From a virus (Duplodnaviria; Caudoviricetes): DNA of 64,000 nucleotides. Both the position numbers and the translations under genes were made by a program. The notes under the pieces were generated by a model. It saw only the letters and a list, made by a program, of their open reading frames with translations, was not told where the DNA came from and searched no databases. Below, in pieces: positions 14,461 to 32,083 of this stretch. Every line of letters begins with the position of its first letter. The stretch's first letter is position 1. The stretch spans positions 37,398 to 101,397 of the IMG/VR virus record IMGVR_UViG_2802428822_000002; one strand, given 5' to 3'.

Positions 14461-14861
14461 CAAAGAACGGACTACCGCCTCGATTTAAAATCGCGAAGCA
14501 GGCTCCGATGGCTGTTGCAGCTCAGAAAATAGCGAAAGTGGGGAGGTTCCGCGGTTCGCCGGCTGAGCGAGGATATGACGCCCGGTGGAACGCGATTAGC
14601 CTGCGTTTTAGACGTCTCAACCCTTTTTGCATGTGGTGCAGCCAGGAGGGGCGGGACACATTAACGGATCTCGTCGACCACATGATCCCCGTCCAGGATC
14701 GTCCTGATCTAATTCATGATTTCAAAAATTTATGGGCGCTCTGCACTTATCATCACGGCCGTAAATTCAGCCTCGAAGTCTATGCTCGGGACAACGGTCT
14801 GCTTCATAGGCTCCCGACCTGGTGCAAAGATCGGGATAGTCGGCCGCAGCAATTCAAATAA
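14457..14861 (+). CDS. Packaging-associated HNH endonuclease (HK97 gp74-like)
   Basis: RGYDARW...NPFCMWC...VDHMIP...NLWALCTYHH. Confidence 0.85.
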   Translation: MTKNGLPPRFKIAKQAPMAVAAQKIAKVGRFRGSPAERGYDARWNAISLRFRRLNPFCMWCSQEGRDTLTDLVDHMIPVQDRPDLIHDFKNLWALCTYHHGRKFSLEVYARDNGLLHRLPTWCKDRDSRPQQFK

Positions 14862-15081
14862 CTGTTTGTTGGTGGCTTCGGATATCAAATGTCTCTCGAT
14901 CTTCCTGCCAGTGCGCTAGGCCGTTGAGGTAATAGACGCCGAACCGTCCCAGATCGTGCATTCCCCAATGAAAGATAGACATCGGGCCGCCGTCGATCGT
15001 TACCTTGATAGTCGGCATCGCCGTTTCGTTTCCATCATGTTCTCCGTTGCCGCGTATATACACATCGTGCGTATATACAAT

Positions 15082-15405
15082 TCAATCCGAAAGGCTCGCA
15101 CTCTTGCGGAGTGCCGCGTTGATCCTAGACTGCCAACCTTCGCCCCCAGATTTGAAATGGTCGATGACTTCCTGGTCGAGGCGGATTGATATTGCCCTCT
15201 TCGGACGCTGTTTTGGTGCCTGGGCGGCCTCTTGGACTTTCTGTCGAGAGCCTTTGGCAGGGTCGATCAAACGCTTGCCGGCGCGCTTTGGCTTTTCCAG
15301 TTTCGTTTCGACCGCCCGCGTGCTTCGCGCGGACTTCAATTCCTCTGCGATTTCATGTGCCGACTTCAATCCACCTGACCGGCCGAGTTGTTGTGCAATC
15401 CCCAT
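15082..15405 (-). CDS. BrnA-family antitoxin / ribbon-helix-helix DNA-binding protein with no adjacent toxin
   Basis: KRAISIRLDQEVIDHFKSGGEGWQSRINAALRK; SD GGAGGAG. Confidence 0.85.
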   Translation of the reverse strand: MGIAQQLGRSGGLKSAHEIAEELKSARSTRAVETKLEKPKRAGKRLIDPAKGSRQKVQEAAQAPKQRPKRAISIRLDQEVIDHFKSGGEGWQSRINAALRKSASLSD

Positions 15406-15430
15406 GTTCTCCTCCACTTGGATAAATTAC

Positions 15431-15485
15431 ATTCTCATACGCATTTTATTATTGACATGCTCAGAAGAATTTGGCAATGATAGGC
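15431..15485 (+). promoter_or_regulatory. Rightward promoter with two 14-bp operator-like boxes
   Basis: TTGACA at 15452-15457, flanked by ATTCTCATACGCAT (15431-15444) and ATGCTCAGAAGAAT (15457-15470). Confidence 0.65.
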
Positions 15486-15489
15486 CATC

Positions 15490-16540
15490 CTGAGAGATCG
15501 GGACACGGTCGGTGACGGAGCGGTTCCTACGGTCACGGGATTAAGGCGCGGAACTCCGAAACGTTAGCCGCGGGCGTGCTTCAGCCATACCAAACGATAT
15601 TCGGGCTTGGCTAATTACCAAGTGTTTATCGGAGCCCCAGGCAGACAGGGTCACAAATAGCGGAAAGCCGGACTCTACGCCGGTATGCCCATGGTTCAGA
15701 TCCGGACGATCCGGCACGAGTCATGGGCGAGAAGGTTTCAGATCTCGTCCATACGCAAGACAGGGACGCGGCGGGATCATTGGGAAGGGCGAAGAGGCTA
15801 CGGGAAAGCTGTCTTGGAACCGTAGTTATCGACGTTCGACCGGGCGGAGAGCCTGGGGAGTGGGTGCAAGCCCCACATTTAGTCTCGCCCAACTGGGCAG
15901 TGATTGTGTGCCGAACGTGCGGAATGTTGAAGCCTCTGGTGGAGCAGCGCACGACAGGCCCACCCCGGCACTCCTACGGGAGGCGACACCGGGGCGCCAA
16001 CCGGACCGTCCACGATTGGGGGGGGTATTCCGGCAGACGCTAATAGGCCGGCGTGGTGTGGGTCAAATTTTGCCCGAGTGGGCATCCGAGGAGGGGGATC
16101 GGTCTTATCAGCCGATCGCGCCGGCAGGATTGATAACCTGGTGGCACCCCGCGAGAAGGGAAGGCGATACGGTAAGGTTCGTCCAGCTCAGGCTGAGTAG
16201 TTGCTCTCAGTATTCCCCAGTTCAAGGTGGGAGGCTTTCTGGTTGCTGTAACGCCTTGCCGCGGCGGGCATGGTTCGCCGAGTAGAGGAAACCAGCGCTC
16301 AATCCCGAGAGCGAGAAAGAATGGGAGGCGGGGAGTGCCGAAGATAGTTCCGCCTAAAGCTACAGTTCGGTCGCATGGTCCCGGCGTTACGGGCCAACGA
16401 ATTCGCCGAAAGGCAACGAGGTCTTGGCCCTGAACTGACAGGGTGAGTAATGGCAGAGCGGAGAGGTCTTCGATAAATCTTTTCTGCTGAGAAAGGGCGG
16501 CTGACCACTGTCCCAACGACGAAGTGTCGCTCGAAAGAGC
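15490..16540 (+). ncRNA. Long structured non-coding region (RNA array part 1)
   Basis: No credible ORF with an SD; dense hairpins with GNRA/UNCG loops and T-loop-like arms. Confidence 0.6.
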
Positions 16541-16544
16541 ATGT

Positions 16545-16606
16545 TGCAGGGTGGAGGCTCGCCAGGCTCATGGAGGCCGACGGTTCAAATCCGCCCCCTG
16601 CAACCA
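16545..16606 (+). pseudogene. tRNA-Met(CAT)-derived RNA lacking the D-loop and the 3' side of the anticodon arm
   Basis: Acceptor TGCAGGG/CCCTGCA + ACCA, T-arm with TTCAAAT loop, CCAGGCTCAT remnant. Confidence 0.7.
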
Positions 16607-16623
16607 AATTTGAAAGGACGGCA

Positions 16624-16929: not shown

Positions 16930-18110
16930 AGGCCATGCCTCATATGGATGCGGTGCGCATCTCGAAAGGTGCCGACAAACCGGGAGTAGCCAGGTGCCAT
17001 GGTTCAGCCTGGAGAGGACAGCCAGCGCTGCTGAATACCGACCTTTGAATTTAGTAACCGGCACGGCGGAACCGTGCAGAGTCAGCGTCGTTCTCCAAGC
17101 GACGTGCCCTAACTGTCGGCGCCGAGCAGTGGCTCATTCGGGCAATGAATTCCGCGGAAGGCGGATCGAGGCAGGCCGGTTCAATTCCGGCTCGGTGGCT
17201 GAGATCGTGGTCGAAGGACACGGTTCAAATCCGTGACGGGCGTAAGCCTAAGACAGTGCTCCAGTTGGTGTGGAGAAGCCCGCGTGGCCCCGGCGATACG
17301 GGGCATGGAATTCGAGGCTAATGCCTCACAATTATGGGAGGCCGGAACACCAACCGGTATCGCTGTAGCTCAAGGGTAGAGCGCTGGGCCATTCCTGTGA
17401 TGCCGTGGTGGGCGGAGGAAACCAGAGGATGCCGGTTCGAATCCGGTCAGCTCCCACCAGTTCTGGAAGGCGCTTTTGCGCTGATCCGATCCCGCGATGT
17501 TGGATAGGCCATCTGACGGACGGACGATCGAGGGTAGGGCTCCGCTAGAAAGGCACCAAGTGCTGGCGGTCTATCTCCCTCTTCCAGATTCAATCGCTGG
17601 CGCCGCAATGGCGACGGCACACAGTTGCGAGGCGGACCCGGCGCGCGTTCGGGCGAGCACCAGGTTATCCGGGATTGCATGCACCCGGTCTGGCACGGCG
17701 GACTGAAGTACAGGGCGAGGTCGCGAACGGACCCTGGAAAAGGTTGAAACCCGTCTCGCATTCAGATCTCTCGCCGTCCGGCCGTATTGGCATCGCCAGT
17801 CGGGTGAAAGGTCGAGAGATGCGAGGCGGCGTGGAAGGAACACGCAGACTGTGACGAAGTACAAGTCACGGCGAACGGTGCGGCCAGGGAAGACCGCTTA
17901 AAGCGATGAAAGCCAAATAGCCGGTGTCGAGCCCGGCCCTCGCATTCAATGAACATCAAGATCGGGCGGCCTCCCGTTGCAAGAATACGGTCTGGCGAGG
18001 AGCGGCCTGATGGCCAGACCAGGTGGAACCCTGCGGCCTCCGCCATCCAACATGAACAGGAATGGAAGCAACCCAACACGGCGGGCGAGAAGACGACCGC
18101 CGGCGTAAAA
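16930..18110 (+). ncRNA. Tandem tRNA-like structured RNA modules (RNA array part 2)
   Basis: Closed modules at 17336-17459, 17462-17592, 17626-17764, 17820-17948 and 17993-18049 ending in ACCA/TTCA/TCCA; free T-arms at 17175-17191 and 17219-17235. Confidence 0.7.
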
Positions 18111-18132
18111 TAAGCAGAGAAGGGCGATCGTA

Positions 18133-24003: not shown

Positions 24004-24249
24004 ATGACGGAGCTTCGCTGGGAGCCATTCGGCGGACCGAAATCGTGGGCAGCCAAATGCGGTGAAGGAACAGTGGCCTTGGTCACGGAACGCATCGACG
24101 GGAAGTTCGCCTGGCAGATTACCGCGGTCCAAATGGGCTGGGTAGGAAACGGCTTCGGCGAAGCGTCTCAATCCTCCACCGCAAAGAAGGCTGTTGAGCG
24201 CAATTGGCGCCGATGGTTGGAACATTACGGGATTATCTGTCATGTCTGA
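24004..24249 (+). CDS. Hypothetical protein
   Basis: Coupled ORF. Confidence 0.6.
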   Translation: MTELRWEPFGGPKSWAAKCGEGTVALVTERIDGKFAWQITAVQMGWVGNGFGEASQSSTAKKAVERNWRRWLEHYGIICHV

Positions 24250-24775
24250 TCTCTTCATGCGCCGATCGGCCATCATCTCGATCTGCAAGATGTACCGTTA
24301 CGAGCTGCGGCGCATATGGGACGATCGACTTCCTCTCCTCGTTGTCTGCATGCTCAATCCGAGTCTCGCTGACGATCAGGTAGAGGATCCAACTCTGCGT
24401 GAACTGATCCATTTCGCCAAAATGTGGGGTTACGGCGGCCTGTTGATCGTGAATTTCTATGCGTTCCGCTCGCCATCGCCGAAGGAGATGTTTGCTCAGG
24501 GGTGCAAAGCGTTCGGTCCGGAGAACGACGCGTATATCAAAGGCGCGATCGCCTACGCCAGAAACCATGGTGGCAAACTACTTGCGGCATGGGGCAATGA
24601 TGGTCATGTCGGTGGATACCACATGTATTTTACTACCTTGGCTGCCGAGCAAAAGGTCGATCTCGTCTGCCTTGGAAAAACGAATTCGGGGCAACCGAAG
24701 CATCCGATGGCGCGCGGAAAACACCGCATACCACGTTCTCAGATGCCGATCATCTGGAAGGAGGCGGCACTGTGA
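24242..24775 (+). CDS. DUF1643 family protein
   Basis: YRYELRRIW..MLNPSLAD..DPT..AAWG..G.PKHP. Confidence 0.88.
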   Translation: MSDLFMRRSAIISICKMYRYELRRIWDDRLPLLVVCMLNPSLADDQVEDPTLRELIHFAKMWGYGGLLIVNFYAFRSPSPKEMFAQGCKAFGPENDAYIKGAIAYARNHGGKLLAAWGNDGHVGGYHMYFTTLAAEQKVDLVCLGKTNSGQPKHPMARGKHRIPRSQMPIIWKEAAL

Positions 24776-25421
24776 AACGAGTTCTTCCTTCCGACCGAAA
24801 TGACTGGACGCCTGAAGAGAGGCAAGATTTCCTCAATTTTTATGCCGGCGTCTTGGAACGTGAGGCAGTGGCACGATCCGACCGCCAACCAGCCTTTGCT
24901 AAAAATCTCCAATCATGGGCAGACGAAGCACGCAAAGAAGCGGGGTCTATTGATCTTAGGTCGCCGCAGATGGAGCTTTTTTGATGAATTTCATCCGTCT
25001 TACACCTGAGGCGCATGCCAGAGCCGTGGAGACTAGGCGTTGGCAAGAAGAAAAGGTGGCGCAATTCGCGAGCATGACGAACGAGAGTCTTGCTGCCAAC
25101 GCCAAGTTCTACGCCCGACAGATGGAGCCGGTGCGGTTCGCGCCAGGCGAGCCGATTTATGACGCAACGATGTGGCATGTGATCCTGCCGGAACTGATCC
25201 GCAGATTAGATAACAAGGCGTGACCAATGAACACGAATGATATCGATAAAGCGCTCGAGGTTGTTCTCCGAAAGCTAAAAGAAATCAATTCACAGCAATA
25301 TTCCCACAGTGCTGCACCGCACGTTGATGCTGACGAAGCGCTGAAGGACTTCTTCGTCGACATCGGCCGACAGGATATCGCTGATGAATACGAGAAGGTG
25401 GAGCCGAAGTGGTACGAGTGA
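24772..25421 (+). CDS. Three small hypothetical genes (24772-24984, 24981-25223, 25227-25421)
   Basis: Translationally coupled ORFs. Confidence 0.55.
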
Positions 25422-25774
25422 ACGAGATATTCGTGTTCGGATCGAACGAGGCTGGCCGGCACGGAAAAGGTGCGGCTCTTTACGCGCGGCGTCACCACGG
25501 CGCTATCTACGGGCAAGGGGAGGGTCTGCAGGGGAATTCCTACGCCATCCCGACGAAGGACGCTAACCTTCGAACACTATCGCTCGACGCGATCGCCAAC
25601 CACATCGTGACATTCCTTGAATTCGCACTGGAGCATCCGGACATGACGTTCCTGATCACGCCGGTCGGTTGCGGACTCGCCGGATATCGTCGCGAACAGA
25701 TCAAGCCGCTATTCGAAGGGCACGGGACTTTACCGCGGAACTGCCGGTATGCTGAAACATGGAATGAGCAATGA
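25418..25774 (+). CDS. Macro-domain-like phage protein (A1S_2505-type)
   Basis: IFVFGSNEAGRHGKGAA...SYAIPT...VGCGLAG. Confidence 0.8.
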   Translation: MNEIFVFGSNEAGRHGKGAALYARRHHGAIYGQGEGLQGNSYAIPTKDANLRTLSLDAIANHIVTFLEFALEHPDMTFLITPVGCGLAGYRREQIKPLFEGHGTLPRNCRYAETWNEQ

Positions 25775-26658
25775 GAGAAGCCTACAAGATAGTGCGAGAC
25801 ACTATCGTCGCTATGACAGGCGATGAATTCCTTACCACAGCGAAGCGCTTCCCATCGCGAGCTGCTATGGCGAGGTCATTTGGCCTTGGTCGAACAGACA
25901 TCAGAATGATCAACCGAAAGATCTCCGGACTGGGACTGGAAGCTGATGAGATTTGGCCCGCCGCCCGGGATCGTCGCCGAGAGAGTATCGCGAGGTTCGA
26001 TTTAATGAATGAGACTCACGCCTATTTCTACGGTCTGGCGCTAGCTGATGGCAGTATACGAGGCAGGAATGGAGATGCGCGTCTAAGTGGCGCGGTTTCG
26101 ATAGAGATCAAGCAAGCGGATCGCGAGGTGTTGGATATTTTGCGTGAACGTCTGCCATGGCAGTTTCGAATTACAGACAGAACTCGACCGTCACCATTCA
26201 ATTTGGTGCATGGGACTTTCTCTGCCCTTGTTTGTCACGCCTTCGATCTCCGTGGCCAAATGATGGATGCCGGGTTTCCTGTTGGGAAGAAATCCAGGAT
26301 CTGTGCACCCCCCAAAAGCGACTACGACGCTAAGGCATTCTGGCGTGGGTTCCTTGATGGCGACGGATCTATCGGATTTACGGCGACCGGAATCCCCTTC
26401 GTTTCTTTGGTCACAGTGAGTGAATCGATATTCACCTCCTACTGTAATTTCATCGAATCTGTGCTGGGCTGGCGCCCGGCGCCTTCGCGAAACACTCGCG
26501 ATAACGCCTGGAATATCACGTTATACCGGGGAAAGGCGGTCCGCTTCGCAGAATTCCTCTACAGTGGTGCCGTGATTAGCATGCGCCGTAAAGCGGAAGC
26601 TGCGGCCGCGATCATGGCCGGCGACTGGGAAAAGAACGCGCCGTGGAGGCGTAAATGA
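25771..26658 (+). CDS. Free-standing LAGLIDADG homing endonuclease
   Basis: Two motifs: YFYGLALADG and FWRGFLDGDG. Confidence 0.85.
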   Translation: MREAYKIVRDTIVAMTGDEFLTTAKRFPSRAAMARSFGLGRTDIRMINRKISGLGLEADEIWPAARDRRRESIARFDLMNETHAYFYGLALADGSIRGRNGDARLSGAVSIEIKQADREVLDILRERLPWQFRITDRTRPSPFNLVHGTFSALVCHAFDLRGQMMDAGFPVGKKSRICAPPKSDYDAKAFWRGFLDGDGSIGFTATGIPFVSLVTVSESIFTSYCNFIESVLGWRPAPSRNTRDNAWNITLYRGKAVRFAEFLYSGAVISMRRKAEAAAAIMAGDWEKNAPWRRK

Positions 26659-26915
26659 ATAAGAGTGGTGTAACTCCATCGTACATCACGTCCGAAGAGC
26701 GCAGCGAACTGCAAGACCTGCACGGGCTCTGCTGGAATACGGATGACAAGTTTGACGAGGAAGAGCCCGACTACGCGGAGATAATGGAGTATCACCGCAG
26801 GATCGCGCCAAGCCACTGGTATCTGCCTTTCCACGCTACTCTACAACACGAGCAATTCGCAACGGAGCTCGAAGCCTATCAAGCTGCCAGCCGTGTTGGC
26901 GGAAAGGTCAACTAA
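26655..26915 (+). CDS. Hypothetical protein
   Basis: Coupled ORF. Confidence 0.55.
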   Translation: MNKSGVTPSYITSEERSELQDLHGLCWNTDDKFDEEEPDYAEIMEYHRRIAPSHWYLPFHATLQHEQFATELEAYQAASRVGGKVN

Positions 26916-27934
26916 TGAGAAATCGCACCATCGTCCGCCTGAAATTTGGTAGCCACCTCTACGGTACAGCGACACCCGCATCCGATCTCGACTTCAAGAG
27001 CGTGTTCGTGCCGTCGGCGCGATCGATCCTGATGCAATCGGCGCCAAAGACGATCAGCCATTCCAGGCCCAAGGGCATCGGTGAGAAGAACTACGCCGGC
27101 GAAGTCGATGAGGAGCAGATCAGCATCCAGAAGTTCCTGCATCTCGCGGCGGAAGGCCAGACGATGGCCCTCGACATGCTATTTGCTCCTGATTACGCGA
27201 TCATCGGAGATCCGGCATGGGAGTGGCGAGAGATTATCGCGAACCGCCGCCGCCTACTGACTCGGAAGTCGGCTGCCTTCATCGGTTACGCGCGTCAGCA
27301 ATCCGCCAAATATGGTTTGAAGGGCTCAAGAGTGGCTGCCTCACGCGACGCGTTGTCAGTACTCAACACTGCAATGGAAGAGCACGGATCAACAGCAAAA
27401 TTGCAAGTTCTTTCCGACGACATCATCTTCATGTGCACGATGAGAGAGCATATGTCGGTGATGGAGGACGTCACTCCGCACGGCCAGACCGTCTTTCTAT
27501 GGGAAGTCTGTGATCGAAAGATGCCGTTCACTGCGTCGATCAAGAACGCCCGCGATATCATGCAGCGCGTCGTCGACGAGTACGGCCGGCGGGCGCTTAT
27601 GGCGGAGACACAACAGGGGATTGACTGGAAAGCCCTCTCGCATGCCGTGCGCGTCGGGGAGGAGGCCGTCGAGCTCCTGCAGACCGGGCACATCACGTTC
27701 CCTCTGCCCAACGCTACCCACATCGTCGATATAAAGCTTGGAAAATTGCTGTATCAGGATGTTGCCGCTGAGATTGAAGGCTTGCTCGAGCGGGTTGAAC
27801 AAGCCGCGACAGAGTCGACTCTGCCGGATGAACCCGATCATGGGTGGATCGCCGATTTTGTCGAATATGTTCATGAATCAGCGGTATTGGCGCGGGCACC
27901 GCGAGCCTATCCTGTTTCCGAGTTCAATGCCTGA
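26915..27934 (+). CDS. Pol-beta superfamily nucleotidyltransferase (RlaP / T4 NrdC.11-like)
   Basis: FGSHLYGT.TP.SDLDFKSVF, GYARQQ..KY, DWKALSHAVR. Confidence 0.88.
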   Translation: MRNRTIVRLKFGSHLYGTATPASDLDFKSVFVPSARSILMQSAPKTISHSRPKGIGEKNYAGEVDEEQISIQKFLHLAAEGQTMALDMLFAPDYAIIGDPAWEWREIIANRRRLLTRKSAAFIGYARQQSAKYGLKGSRVAASRDALSVLNTAMEEHGSTAKLQVLSDDIIFMCTMREHMSVMEDVTPHGQTVFLWEVCDRKMPFTASIKNARDIMQRVVDEYGRRALMAETQQGIDWKALSHAVRVGEEAVELLQTGHITFPLPNATHIVDIKLGKLLYQDVAAEIEGLLERVEQAATESTLPDEPDHGWIADFVEYVHESAVLARAPRAYPVSEFNA

Positions 27935-28314
27935 TGATCGTATTAGTCTGCGGTGGCCGCGAATTCGACGATCGCGATTTTCTCTTCTCGGTCCTCGATC
28001 GGGTGCATGCCAAATACGGCGACGATCTCGTCATCATCACCGGTGCGCAGCGAAAGCGGAAACCAGATGACAGTTATTGCGGCGCCGATTATCTCGCACA
28101 GGAATGGGCGATAGATCGTGAAGTTGAATACATGGGCTTTCCGGCTAGGTGGAAGAAACTTGGATCTCCAGCGGCCGGCGGTGAGCGTAATCGCCGGATG
28201 CGGGACAAAGCAAAGCCGGATGCCGCAGTGGCTTTCGAAGGCGGACGTGGCACGGAACTTATGTGCAATCTAATGCTGGAGATTGGTATCAAGCCGTGGC
28301 GGCCAAAACCTTGA
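27934..28314 (+). CDS. SLOG-family (DUF2493/YspA-like) protein
   Basis: VLVCGGREF...GAD..A..WA...A.W...AG..RN..M...VAF.GGRGT. Confidence 0.85.
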   Translation: MIVLVCGGREFDDRDFLFSVLDRVHAKYGDDLVIITGAQRKRKPDDSYCGADYLAQEWAIDREVEYMGFPARWKKLGSPAAGGERNRRMRDKAKPDAAVAFEGGRGTELMCNLMLEIGIKPWRPKP

Positions 28315-28330
28315 CAAATAGGAGATTGAG

Positions 28331-28525
28331 ATGATTGACATTGATATCAAACAGCGGGCCGCCAACGGTCCTAATTACAAACTGTTTAAGAAAAAGGTTC
28401 CCGCACTGCCTCGCGAAGGCGATCATATGTCTTCCGACATGGATGGCTTCAGCGGCTACGTTAAGCGCACCATGTTTTGGTGGAATGAGCAAGGAAAGCT
28501 GGTGATTGAAGTGGAGATCAAGTGA
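28331..28525 (+). CDS. Hypothetical protein
   Basis: SD AGGAG. Confidence 0.6.
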
Positions 28526-28526
28526 G

Positions 28527-29015
28527 ATGGAGCAACATGCTCTGAGATTCGCCACACGTGCTCACGGTAGCCAACTCAGAAAATATACTCTCGAGCCGTA
28601 TATCGTGCATCCGATCGCCGTAGCCGAGATCGTGCGTAGTGTGACGCATACGCCAGAGATGATTGTTGCTGCTCTGCTTCACGACATAATCGAAGACACG
28701 CCAGTCCAGTTGCTCGACATCAAGATTAAATTCGGCGCCAACGTTGCGCAACTTGTCGCATGGCTCACCGATATCTCGACGCCGTTCCATGGCAACCGTG
28801 CGGTCCGAAAGGAACTCGATCGTCAGCATCTCGCATTGGCGCCGGCTGAGGCGAAGACGATCAAACTTGCCGATCTGATCGACAATTCTGTATCGATCAA
28901 AGCGAGTGATCCCGACTTCTGGAAAGTTTTCCGCGCCGAAAAGATCAGACTGCTTGATGTGTTGAAGGAAGGCGACAAGACCTTATGGGATCGCGCCGCC
29001 TCTTTGGTAGAATAA
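28527..29015 (+). CDS. HD-domain small alarmone hydrolase ((p)ppGpp hydrolase, Mesh1/SpoT-HD-like)
   Basis: [36 protein letters not shown]. Confidence 0.9.
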
Positions 29016-31942: not shown

Positions 31943-31994
31943 CGCCATATCCTGTGTCCTTGAGCTGCTTGTCGCGGTGCGATAAGCTCAAGAA

Positions 31995-32083
31995 GGCCGG
32001 CGCGTCATAACGTAAGCCAGTGGACGAGCTCTCGTGAAAACGAGGTGGCGTTGGTTCGAATCCAACCGGAAGACGCGCCGGTC
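31995..32083 (+). ncRNA. tRNA-like RNA with a 12-bp terminal stem
   Basis: GGCCGGCGCGTC/GACGCGCCGGTC stem, CTCG-TGAAAA-CGAG arm, GTTGG-TTCGAAT-CCAAC T-arm. Confidence 0.6.

Follow-up and report, generated by a model that had tools for sequence, protein, structure and literature searches.

We report here on a stretch of viral DNA of 64,000 nucleotides (nt), hereafter the window, which is the last 64 kb of a 101-kb provirus record of IMG/VR (IMGVR_UViG_2802428822_000002), and more precisely on an element that occupies positions 17336-17459 of its given strand. With moderate confidence, we understand this element as the gene for a conserved, structured, non-decoding RNA, derived from a transfer RNA (tRNA) and carried by temperate phages, apparently of Alphaproteobacteria, the product of which would probably be a tRNA mimic. 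The core of a tRNA has been retained: a D-arm with its GG, a T-arm with the loop UUCGAAU, a variable loop, and an acceptor/T helix that ends with A and CCA. To this core are added a hairpin that branches off the acceptor stem and an arm of nested helices that replaces the anticodon stem-loop and, to judge from the alignment of homologs, both additions are under selection. It is this comparison, rather than the energy of folding, that seems to lift the observation above what chance would produce.

Two other versions of the element were found by pattern scans anchored on the D-arm and the T-loop, with an over-long spacer between them. One (L028) belongs to a prophage of Rhizobium lusitanum, the other is an identical trio (L022, L025 and L271) that comes from metagenome and IMG/VR records. 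The L025 copy lies just upstream of a terS-terL-portal set, the packaging-gene families of which differ from those of the window phage, and the RNA is therefore present in two unrelated phage backgrounds. A covariance model, R1, built from the window and L028 copies, gives 148.7 bits to L028 and 72.4 bits to the third version (L022/L025/L271), while ordinary or odd tRNAs score at most 55 bits.

Pairs were counted in a model-guided alignment of the three distinct sequences (window, L028 and L022). Standard pairs fill 97.3% of the 112 pair cells, a share that falls to 36-48% once the 3' partners are displaced by 1-3 columns. In the outer acceptor helix, two of the five pairs are changed on both sides (G-C to A-U in L028, A-U to C-G in L022) with 100% of the cells paired; the five pairs of the inserted hairpin, also 100% paired, include one that is changed on both sides (C-G to G-C) and one with a one-sided change (G-C to G-U). 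Three of the four pairs that form the basal stem of the replacement arm (helix 6) are changed on both sides, as is one pair of the T stem (helix 9) in L022. The inner acceptor pairs (helix 4) and helix 8 of the replacement arm do not vary; helix 7, if taken as five Watson-Crick pairs, has 80% of its cells paired, and L022 carries a 2-nt bulge in the 3' strand of its acceptor. The best-conserved stretches include the inserted parts, namely the loop ACCAA and UGAYGCCGUGGU...GAGG. Three 1-nt indels separate the window and L028 copies within the element, all in loops, and the element is therefore non-coding. None of 500 column shuffles reached any of the five observed measures, a result to be read with the caveat that related sequences can outdo shuffles even when there is no structure; more weight attaches to the slid-partner control and to where the changes fall. 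An earlier, sequence-only reading of this DNA had proposed selection on structure rather than decay, and had named the alignment of homologs as a way to check it. Compensatory changes at the split acceptor, the inserted hairpin, the base of the replacement arm and the T stem bear this out: the alignment displays no random, uncompensated divergence, seven pairs are changed on both sides, and no helix is lost across the three versions.

The anatomy of the element, collected in Table 1, agrees with what that reading had described. The D-arm, the T-arm and the ACCA end are indeed normal, as is the variable loop; the 5' acceptor strand is indeed split around a 22-nt insert that folds on itself; and the nested CTGG/CCAG, TTCC(T)/(A)GGAA and GCC/GGC helices do occupy the place of the anticodon loop. 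The acceptor helix counts 8 base pairs (bp), its two 5' segments facing CAGCTCCC (17448-17455). Rather than the contiguous 7-bp stem of a tRNA, we have here a stem split 5 + 3 by the insert (17341-17362, an 18-nt hairpin followed by a 4-nt linker), and this split is kept in all three sequences, the hairpin that branches off the 5' strand creating a three-way junction. The consensus of its loop is AMCCAA, with ACCAA present in each of the three loops. In the D-arm region, 22 nt (GCUGUAGCUCAAGGGUAGAGCG) are invariant in the three sequences, all of which have a U at position -1. The ACCA end is gene-encoded in the window and in L028, and AUUC follows the acceptor strand in L022. The upstream hairpin is conserved: at its site, comparison by eye finds GAGGC/GCCUC in L028/L272 and CCGC-GAGA-GCGG in L271. 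No second copy of the inserted hairpin (at up to 3 mismatches) or of the replacement arm was found in the window; a mobile palindromic insert was considered and rejected, as neither insert is repeated there.

Table 1. Parts of the tRNA-like element and of its immediate upstream flank (window coordinates).
Feature	Position	Strand	Remarks
Upstream hairpin GAGGC-UAAU-GCCUC	17314-17327	+	preceded by AAUUC; followed by an 8-nt linker that ends with U(-1)
Acceptor helix, outer 5' strand GGGAG	17336-17340	+	partner 17451-17455
Inserted hairpin GCCGG/CCGGT	17341-17358	+	stem 17341-45/17354-58; loop AACACCAA 17346-53
Unpaired linker AUCG	17359-17362	+	same in L028; UCAAG in L022
Acceptor helix, inner 5' strand CUG (CTG in DNA)	17363-17365	+	partner CAG 17448-17450; invariant
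U8, A9, D-arm, G26	17366-17383	+	D-arm GCUC-AAGGGUA-GAGC 17368-17382
Arm replacing the anticodon stem-loop	17384-17425	+	nested helices
Replacement arm, stem a, CTGG/CCAG	17384-87 with 17422-25	+	then internal loop
Replacement arm, C stem (TTCC/GGAA)	17392-95 with 17417-20	+	
Replacement arm, 3-nt bulge	17396-98	+	
Replacement arm, G.A and A.G pairs	G17399.A17416 and A17400.G17415	+	
Replacement arm, 3b.3n position	U17401.G17414	+	
Replacement arm, NC stem GCC/GGC	17402-04 with 17411-13	+	
Replacement arm, end loop GUGGUG	17405-10	+	
Variable loop AGGAU	17426-17430	+	GGGU in L028, AGGUU in L022
T-arm GCCGG-UUCGAAU-CCGGU	17431-17447	+	Rfam tRNA match; homolog alignment
Acceptor 3' strand CAGCUCCC, discriminator A17456, encoded CCA	17448-17459	+	

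The label of tRNA, which the same reading had used, holds for the core of the molecule and fails for a decoding tRNA, and we prefer to speak of a tRNA-like RNA. The letters at the positions of loop nucleotides 32-37 are CCAUUC in the window, UUUACC in L028 and UGCCUA in L022: there is no shared anticodon, no conserved U33, and no 5-bp stem with a 7-nt anticodon loop in the three sequences. As for determinants of aminoacylation, G-C in the window and A-U in L028 stand where a G3.U70 would be, and those of the anticodon are absent. Because no anticodon is conserved, the predicted RNA does not decode.

General models recognise the element in part. The Rfam tRNA model (RF00005) matches 17362-17451 with 38.5 bits, the gathering score being 29 (E 1.4e-4 for the whole window); this match is local, covering model positions 4-67 only, with 34 nt where 9 are expected at the anticodon position. 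ARAGORN does not call the element by default; with its intron option, it is silent at default stringency, and the models that it proposes when stringency is lowered are all implausible. The minimum free energy of the window copy is -53.0 kcal/mol, which is not significant (z = -1.67, with 14 of 200 shuffles equally stable).

In the replacement arm, a C-G closing pair, a 3-nt bulge (UGU in the window, AGU in L028, UAU in L022), then G.A and A.G are invariant as a pattern in all three sequences; GCC/GGC and the end loop GUGGU(G/U), or GUGGUK, follow in all three as well, and at the 3b.3n position the window has U.G, L028 and L022 C.C. This is the consensus of a kink-turn as given in PMC5061560: a 3-nt bulge, then G.A and A.G, flanked by a Watson-Crick C stem. 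The rule for the 3b.3n pair, set out in PMC4382518, predicts folding in Mg2+ for all three sequences. We thus infer that the arm contains a kink-turn that should fold without protein, a predicted behaviour that is typical of kink-turns mediating tertiary contacts of RNA, not of the protein-dependent ones. The loop at the tip of the arm and that of the acceptor hairpin have complementary letters, with CACCA/UGGUG in the window, AACCA/UGGUU in L028 and ACCA/UGGU in L022, the fifth pair co-varying from C-G in the window to A-U in L028. Random loops of the same lengths reach five Watson-Crick pairs in 0.85% of trials.

We may take these features as a starting point to propose how the RNA could work. 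RNase P and the enzymes of the tRNA 3' end would probably excise a stable RNA of about 124 nt from a long, apparently non-coding transcript of 16930-18130, since the elbow, the acceptor/T helix, the U at -1 (three sequences of three) and the CCA (two of three) are intact. The kink would then bring the end loop GUGGUK to the acceptor-hairpin loop AMCCAA, within one molecule or between molecules. The product would be a tRNA mimic unable to enter decoding, and would most likely occupy or titrate a factor that recognises the body of tRNA or its CCA end, the candidates being enzymes of host defence or toxin systems, of tRNA processing, or of the phage itself, for instance its RlaP-type nucleotidyltransferase. 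Among possible roles, we would place that of decoy or sponge ahead of a pure signal for processing or stability, and the latter ahead of a self-assembling scaffold.

As a signal for processing or stability, the RNA would be a tRNA-shaped punctuation mark at which RNase P and the 3'-end enzymes would cut a long non-coding or polycistronic transcript, thereby setting the ends of the RNAs or mRNAs on either side, while the released piece would be without a function of its own. In favour of this, the element lies within about 1.2 kb without a convincing open reading frame (ORF; 16930-18130), between structured modules, with a double T-arm module upstream and a strongly conserved stretch downstream, while in the L025 type it stands upstream of the packaging operon; the U that precedes the element at -1 goes in the same direction, as do an elbow and an acceptor helix that are both intact. 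RNase P needs, however, the acceptor/T helix and the elbow only, and the kink-turn signature, the conserved end loop and the conserved hairpin loop would be left unexplained, so that we regard this account as doubtful. Self-assembly would make use of precisely these parts, complementary loops joining one molecule to the next in rings or larger assemblies, the angle of which would be imposed by the kink-turn. Besides the complementarity and its co-varying pair, geometry would help, the anticodon end and the acceptor stem of an L-shaped tRNA diverging in such a way that pairing between molecules would be easy; the packaging RNA (pRNA) of phage phi29 joins hand in hand by its loops, and large phage-associated RNAs are multimeric. 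Yet Rfam gives no match to pRNA, ROOL or GOLLD, and the kink-turn might just as well bend the arm back towards a partner in its own molecule; the idea strikes us as improbable. A bolder picture, also quite unlikely, is that of a new class of machine built on a tRNA scaffold, the kink-turn, folded by metal ions, swinging a UGGU loop of the CCA-binding type onto the ACCA of the hairpin, either to link molecules into rings or cages or to compete with the 3' ACCA end of the RNA itself or with those of other tRNAs, thus sensing or sequestering uncharged tRNA ends or their enzymes. Loops with UGGU that bind CCA are known in the T-box bulge and in the L15 loop of RNase P.

Two further explanations would deny the RNA any role of its own, or restore decoding to it, and both are unlikely. 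A former phage tRNA, having suffered two insertions, might be drifting as a decaying pseudogene: a decayed tRNA does exist nearby (16545-16607), the region is mosaic, one relative, L015, is without the block that contains the element, and ARAGORN makes no call on the element. Against this stand the seven compensatory changes and the preservation of every helix, over three versions and two unrelated phage types, together with the rank of the inserted parts among the best-conserved stretches, and we hold decay for very improbable. The other explanation has a decoding tRNA with two introns, removed after transcription to yield a normal cloverleaf. Both inserts are inside otherwise normal tRNA helices, ACCA is encoded, and tRNAs with several introns, acceptor-stem introns included, exist in some archaea. 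But the relatives of the element are in bacterial genomes (Rhizobium and, for the neighbouring module, Sphingopyxis and Hyphomicrobiales), and bacteria are not known to possess the bulge-helix-bulge splicing endonuclease. Inspection of the insert boundaries by eye reveals no such motif, UGGG (the four exon bases that precede, at the first insert, two presumed bulged bases, AG) having no complement at the 3' end of that insert, UAUC. No choice of boundaries creates an anticodon or a U33 common to the three sequences, no RtcB gene, hence no ligase of that kind, is present in the 101-kb phage record, and the insert sequences are conserved, which argues against removable introns and makes splicing scarcely credible.

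Several observations weigh against the mimic that we favour. Only three distinct sequences were compared, and their alignment was fitted to the model. The fold of minimum free energy is, for the window copy, a rod in which the insert pairs with the strands of the T-arm, not a cloverleaf, because the insert stem and the T stem share the same letters; in the L028 copy, where the insert stem differs, that fold is the cloverleaf with its extra hairpin, and the rod of the window is not conserved. The ACCA end may not be essential, as L022 has no encoded CCA and bears the bulge in its acceptor 3' strand. The contact between loops, deduced like the kink-turn from the letters alone, is suggestive, not proven: when the observed loop letters are shuffled, the observed run is reached in 9%, 4% and 22% of trials, the loops of L022 form only 4 pairs, and the 3' CACCA end could pair with the same end loop (5 pairs in the window, 4 in L028). 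Finally, the RNA is dispensable, as about 440 nt (17145 to about 17590), the element among them, are missing from L015, the closest relative by its flanking genes (79% amino-acid identity).

It is worth comparing the element with known systems. As with phi29 pRNA, a phage encodes a structured RNA with two complementary loops, one version of which adjoins packaging genes, and pairing of the AACC/GGUU type in pRNA offers a lead, no more. The fold is otherwise different, without similarity of sequence or model (no Rfam pRNA match at the gathering threshold or with E up to 10), and the genes at hand are ordinary terminase and portal genes. With canonical class I tRNA (RF00005) the element shares the GG D-arm, the UUCGAAU T-arm, a variable loop of 4-5 nt, coaxial acceptor and T helices, and A + CCA; it differs in that its 8-bp acceptor is interrupted by a branching hairpin and that it has neither a 7-nt anticodon loop nor a conserved anticodon. 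Kink-turns mediate tertiary contacts in the SAM-I and lysine riboswitches. Like those of riboswitches, the kink-turn of the element would be of the type that folds with metal ions, in a helix whose end loop has a complementary partner elsewhere (PMC4316175, PMC4382518, PMC5061560); unlike riboswitches, the element is a tRNA scaffold, matches no Rfam riboswitch family and has no evident ligand pocket. The tRNA-like domain of transfer-messenger RNA (tmRNA), YrlA and mascRNA come closest in spirit, since there too the acceptor, T-arm and elbow are kept, decoding is lost and processing by tRNA enzymes is expected (compare PMC4201824). In contrast to tmRNA, the element has no reading frame for a tag; ARAGORN makes no tmRNA call and Rfam no tmRNA match in the window. 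It has neither the closed acceptor stem of the YrlA type nor a helix binding Ro, YrlA gives no Rfam match, and no TROVE/Ro gene was found in the 101-kb phage record. From mascRNA it differs by its full D-arm and its elaborate replacement arm, and the only match of the mascRNA model is a weak one (16 bits) to the neighbouring degenerate tRNA-Met. Readings as tmRNA, Y RNA, group I or II intron, ROOL or GOLLD were rejected, there being no Rfam signal for them. In the titles and abstracts of the literature, we met with no description of a tRNA-like RNA from a phage that would bear a hairpin in its acceptor stem or an arm with a kink-turn, it being understood that supplements may hold unlisted motifs.

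The family is rare. Among 401 genomes of the order of the Rhizobium genome, BLAST with 17300-17600 gave one real match and two matches limited to the D-arm; over the 151 genomes of its family, R1 found one member (G001), while in 8 other genomes it scored 40-47 bits, the 7 hits that were examined being ordinary tRNAs (Thr, Gly, Ala, Arg). By the same measure the nearest tRNAs of the host type are Thr(GGT), Gly(GCC), Ala(TGC) and Arg(CCG), at 40-45 bits. In the record from which the window comes R1 detected no additional copy, nor did it find one in those behind L002, L007 and L008. Three patterns run on IMG/VR revealed no further member. The exact pattern of the D-arm with a strict T-arm had no match in viral contigs, and genome contigs gave none to the exact 26 nt of the 3' end; the loose pattern GCCGTGGT...GGTTCRANTCC, run on both collections, yielded no family member in 239 filtered hits among the matches listed; tighter patterns brought back L271 and L028 only, and the D-arm/T-loop pattern added only ordinary or otherwise odd tRNAs from viral contigs. 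Among INPHARED phages, the only match was Touem01, restricted to the double T-arm module. A set of metagenome tRNAs (L016/L026, L018, L019, L020 and L024) have the same D-arm (GTAGCTCAAGGGTAGAGC) with 6-30 extra nt in the anticodon/variable region. Some have normal acceptor stems and CCA; they are not family members, and may contain introns or be otherwise unusual.

The phage that carries the element has a structural module of the siphovirus type, with genes for the large terminase, the portal, the major head protein and the tape measure; an integrase, the beta clamp of a DNA polymerase III and a MoxR/VWA pair are also encoded in the window. Its segment 16997-24550 is syntenic with the Rhizobium lusitanum JHI1118 prophage (L028/L272), at about 65-85% amino-acid identity, and its neighbouring RNA modules are also present in Sphingopyxis and Hyphomicrobiales genomes, on account of which the host is probably an alphaproteobacterium. 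An RlaP-type 'RNA repair pathway' nucleotidyltransferase (PF10127) is encoded at 26915-27934, 9.5 kb downstream of the tRNA-like element, and an HD_4 phosphohydrolase is encoded in the window as well. Both belong to a cluster (24194-29015) with DUF1643 and a LAGLIDADG-domain protein, directly upstream of the window's one ordinary tRNA, tRNA-Gly(TCC), the CCA of which is gene-encoded too; this cluster could be a module for RNA-end repair or nucleotide signalling. DNA contigs from sequencing runs come from the likely source (X1), contain the same sequence (X2) or, in a soil metagenome, span 17449-17635 with 7 differences (X3).

Several tRNA-derived modules, the element among them, lie together in a region that is a mosaic of RNA cassettes. 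The edges of the mosaic are visible where 17056-17144 corresponds to L015 1200-1288 and 17594-17634 to L015 1301-1341, the block of about 440 nt in between comprising the double T-arm module, the tRNA-like element and some 130 nt downstream; the Rhizobium prophage has a different 288-nt stretch where the window has the double T-arm part. Upstream, 16545-16607 is a mini tRNA-like sequence, 59 nt long and followed by ACCA, to which the tRNA model of Rfam gives 26 bits, less than its cut-off. It is a deletion derivative of tRNA-Met(CAT) in which the greater part of the D-arm and some of the anticodon arm are gone, and an intact tRNA-Met(CAT) occupies the same place in L015 (638-714) and L272 (281-357, reverse strand). 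The double T-arm module (17171-17306) consists of CCGG-UUCAAUU-CCGG and CACGG-UUCAAAU-CCGUG joined by the conserved CUCGNUGGCYGAGA, then more hairpins. It is kept in an unannotated gap of Pseudomonas phage Touem01, in three IMG/VR records and in metagenome-assembled genomes (MAGs) of Sphingopyxis and Hyphomicrobiales. RNAalifold predicts 32 pairs in it, 14 of them compensatory, no Rfam family matches, and it looks like a separate, undescribed phage RNA motif. In the Sphingopyxis MAG, on the strand opposite to this module, L013 5901-7725 contains four matches resembling type II hammerheads (29.9-36.1 bits, cut-off 37), about 550 nt apart. Downstream of the element, identity to the Rhizobium prophage (L028/L272) is 86% over 17308-17589 and 87% over 17583-17764, and 17460-17767 matches it in all reading frames, as expected of conservation at the nucleotide level; with a possible closing stem between CUGGAAG (17463-69) and CUUCCAG (17581-87), this is possibly another structured RNA.

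L015 1341-1422, which ARAGORN calls 'tRNA-Ser(cga)', is another odd tRNA-derived element, in which an 8-bp acceptor-like stem encloses two hairpins that resemble T-arms, GCCGG-TTCGATC-CCGGC and GTCGG-TTCGAGT-CCGAC. In the window, one more hairpin that resembles a T-arm, GTTGG-TTCGAAT-CCAAC, stands isolated at 32046-32066, downstream of a lipase-like gene (R1 11.5 bits, E 0.39, over 31985-32066). On the minus strand, 14854-15417 holds two small ORFs that, by eye, resemble toxin-antitoxin genes of the BrnT/BrnA type, the second with a DUF4415-like C-terminus; divergent matches to sigma-70-like promoters follow at 15448-15481, then about 1.1 kb (15490-16600) without a convincing ORF or an Rfam match.

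The tRNA genes of phages are usually seen as helpers of codon usage or as spares against the anticodon nucleases of the host, and odd ones are dismissed as pseudogenes. Here we would have a tRNA gene that was rebuilt, losing decoding while gaining a kink-turn arm and an acceptor branch, and then selectively kept in two unrelated phage lineages. If it is expressed, the RNA would be a compact natural case in which the scaffold of a tRNA serves a new function of RNA, and a candidate tRNA mimic in the conflict between phage and host; its small size suits probing, structure determination and mutational tests. The double T-arm module, found from a Pseudomonas phage to alphaproteobacterial prophages, suggests moreover that tRNA-derived RNAs may be a wider, unannotated feature of the early regions of phage genomes.

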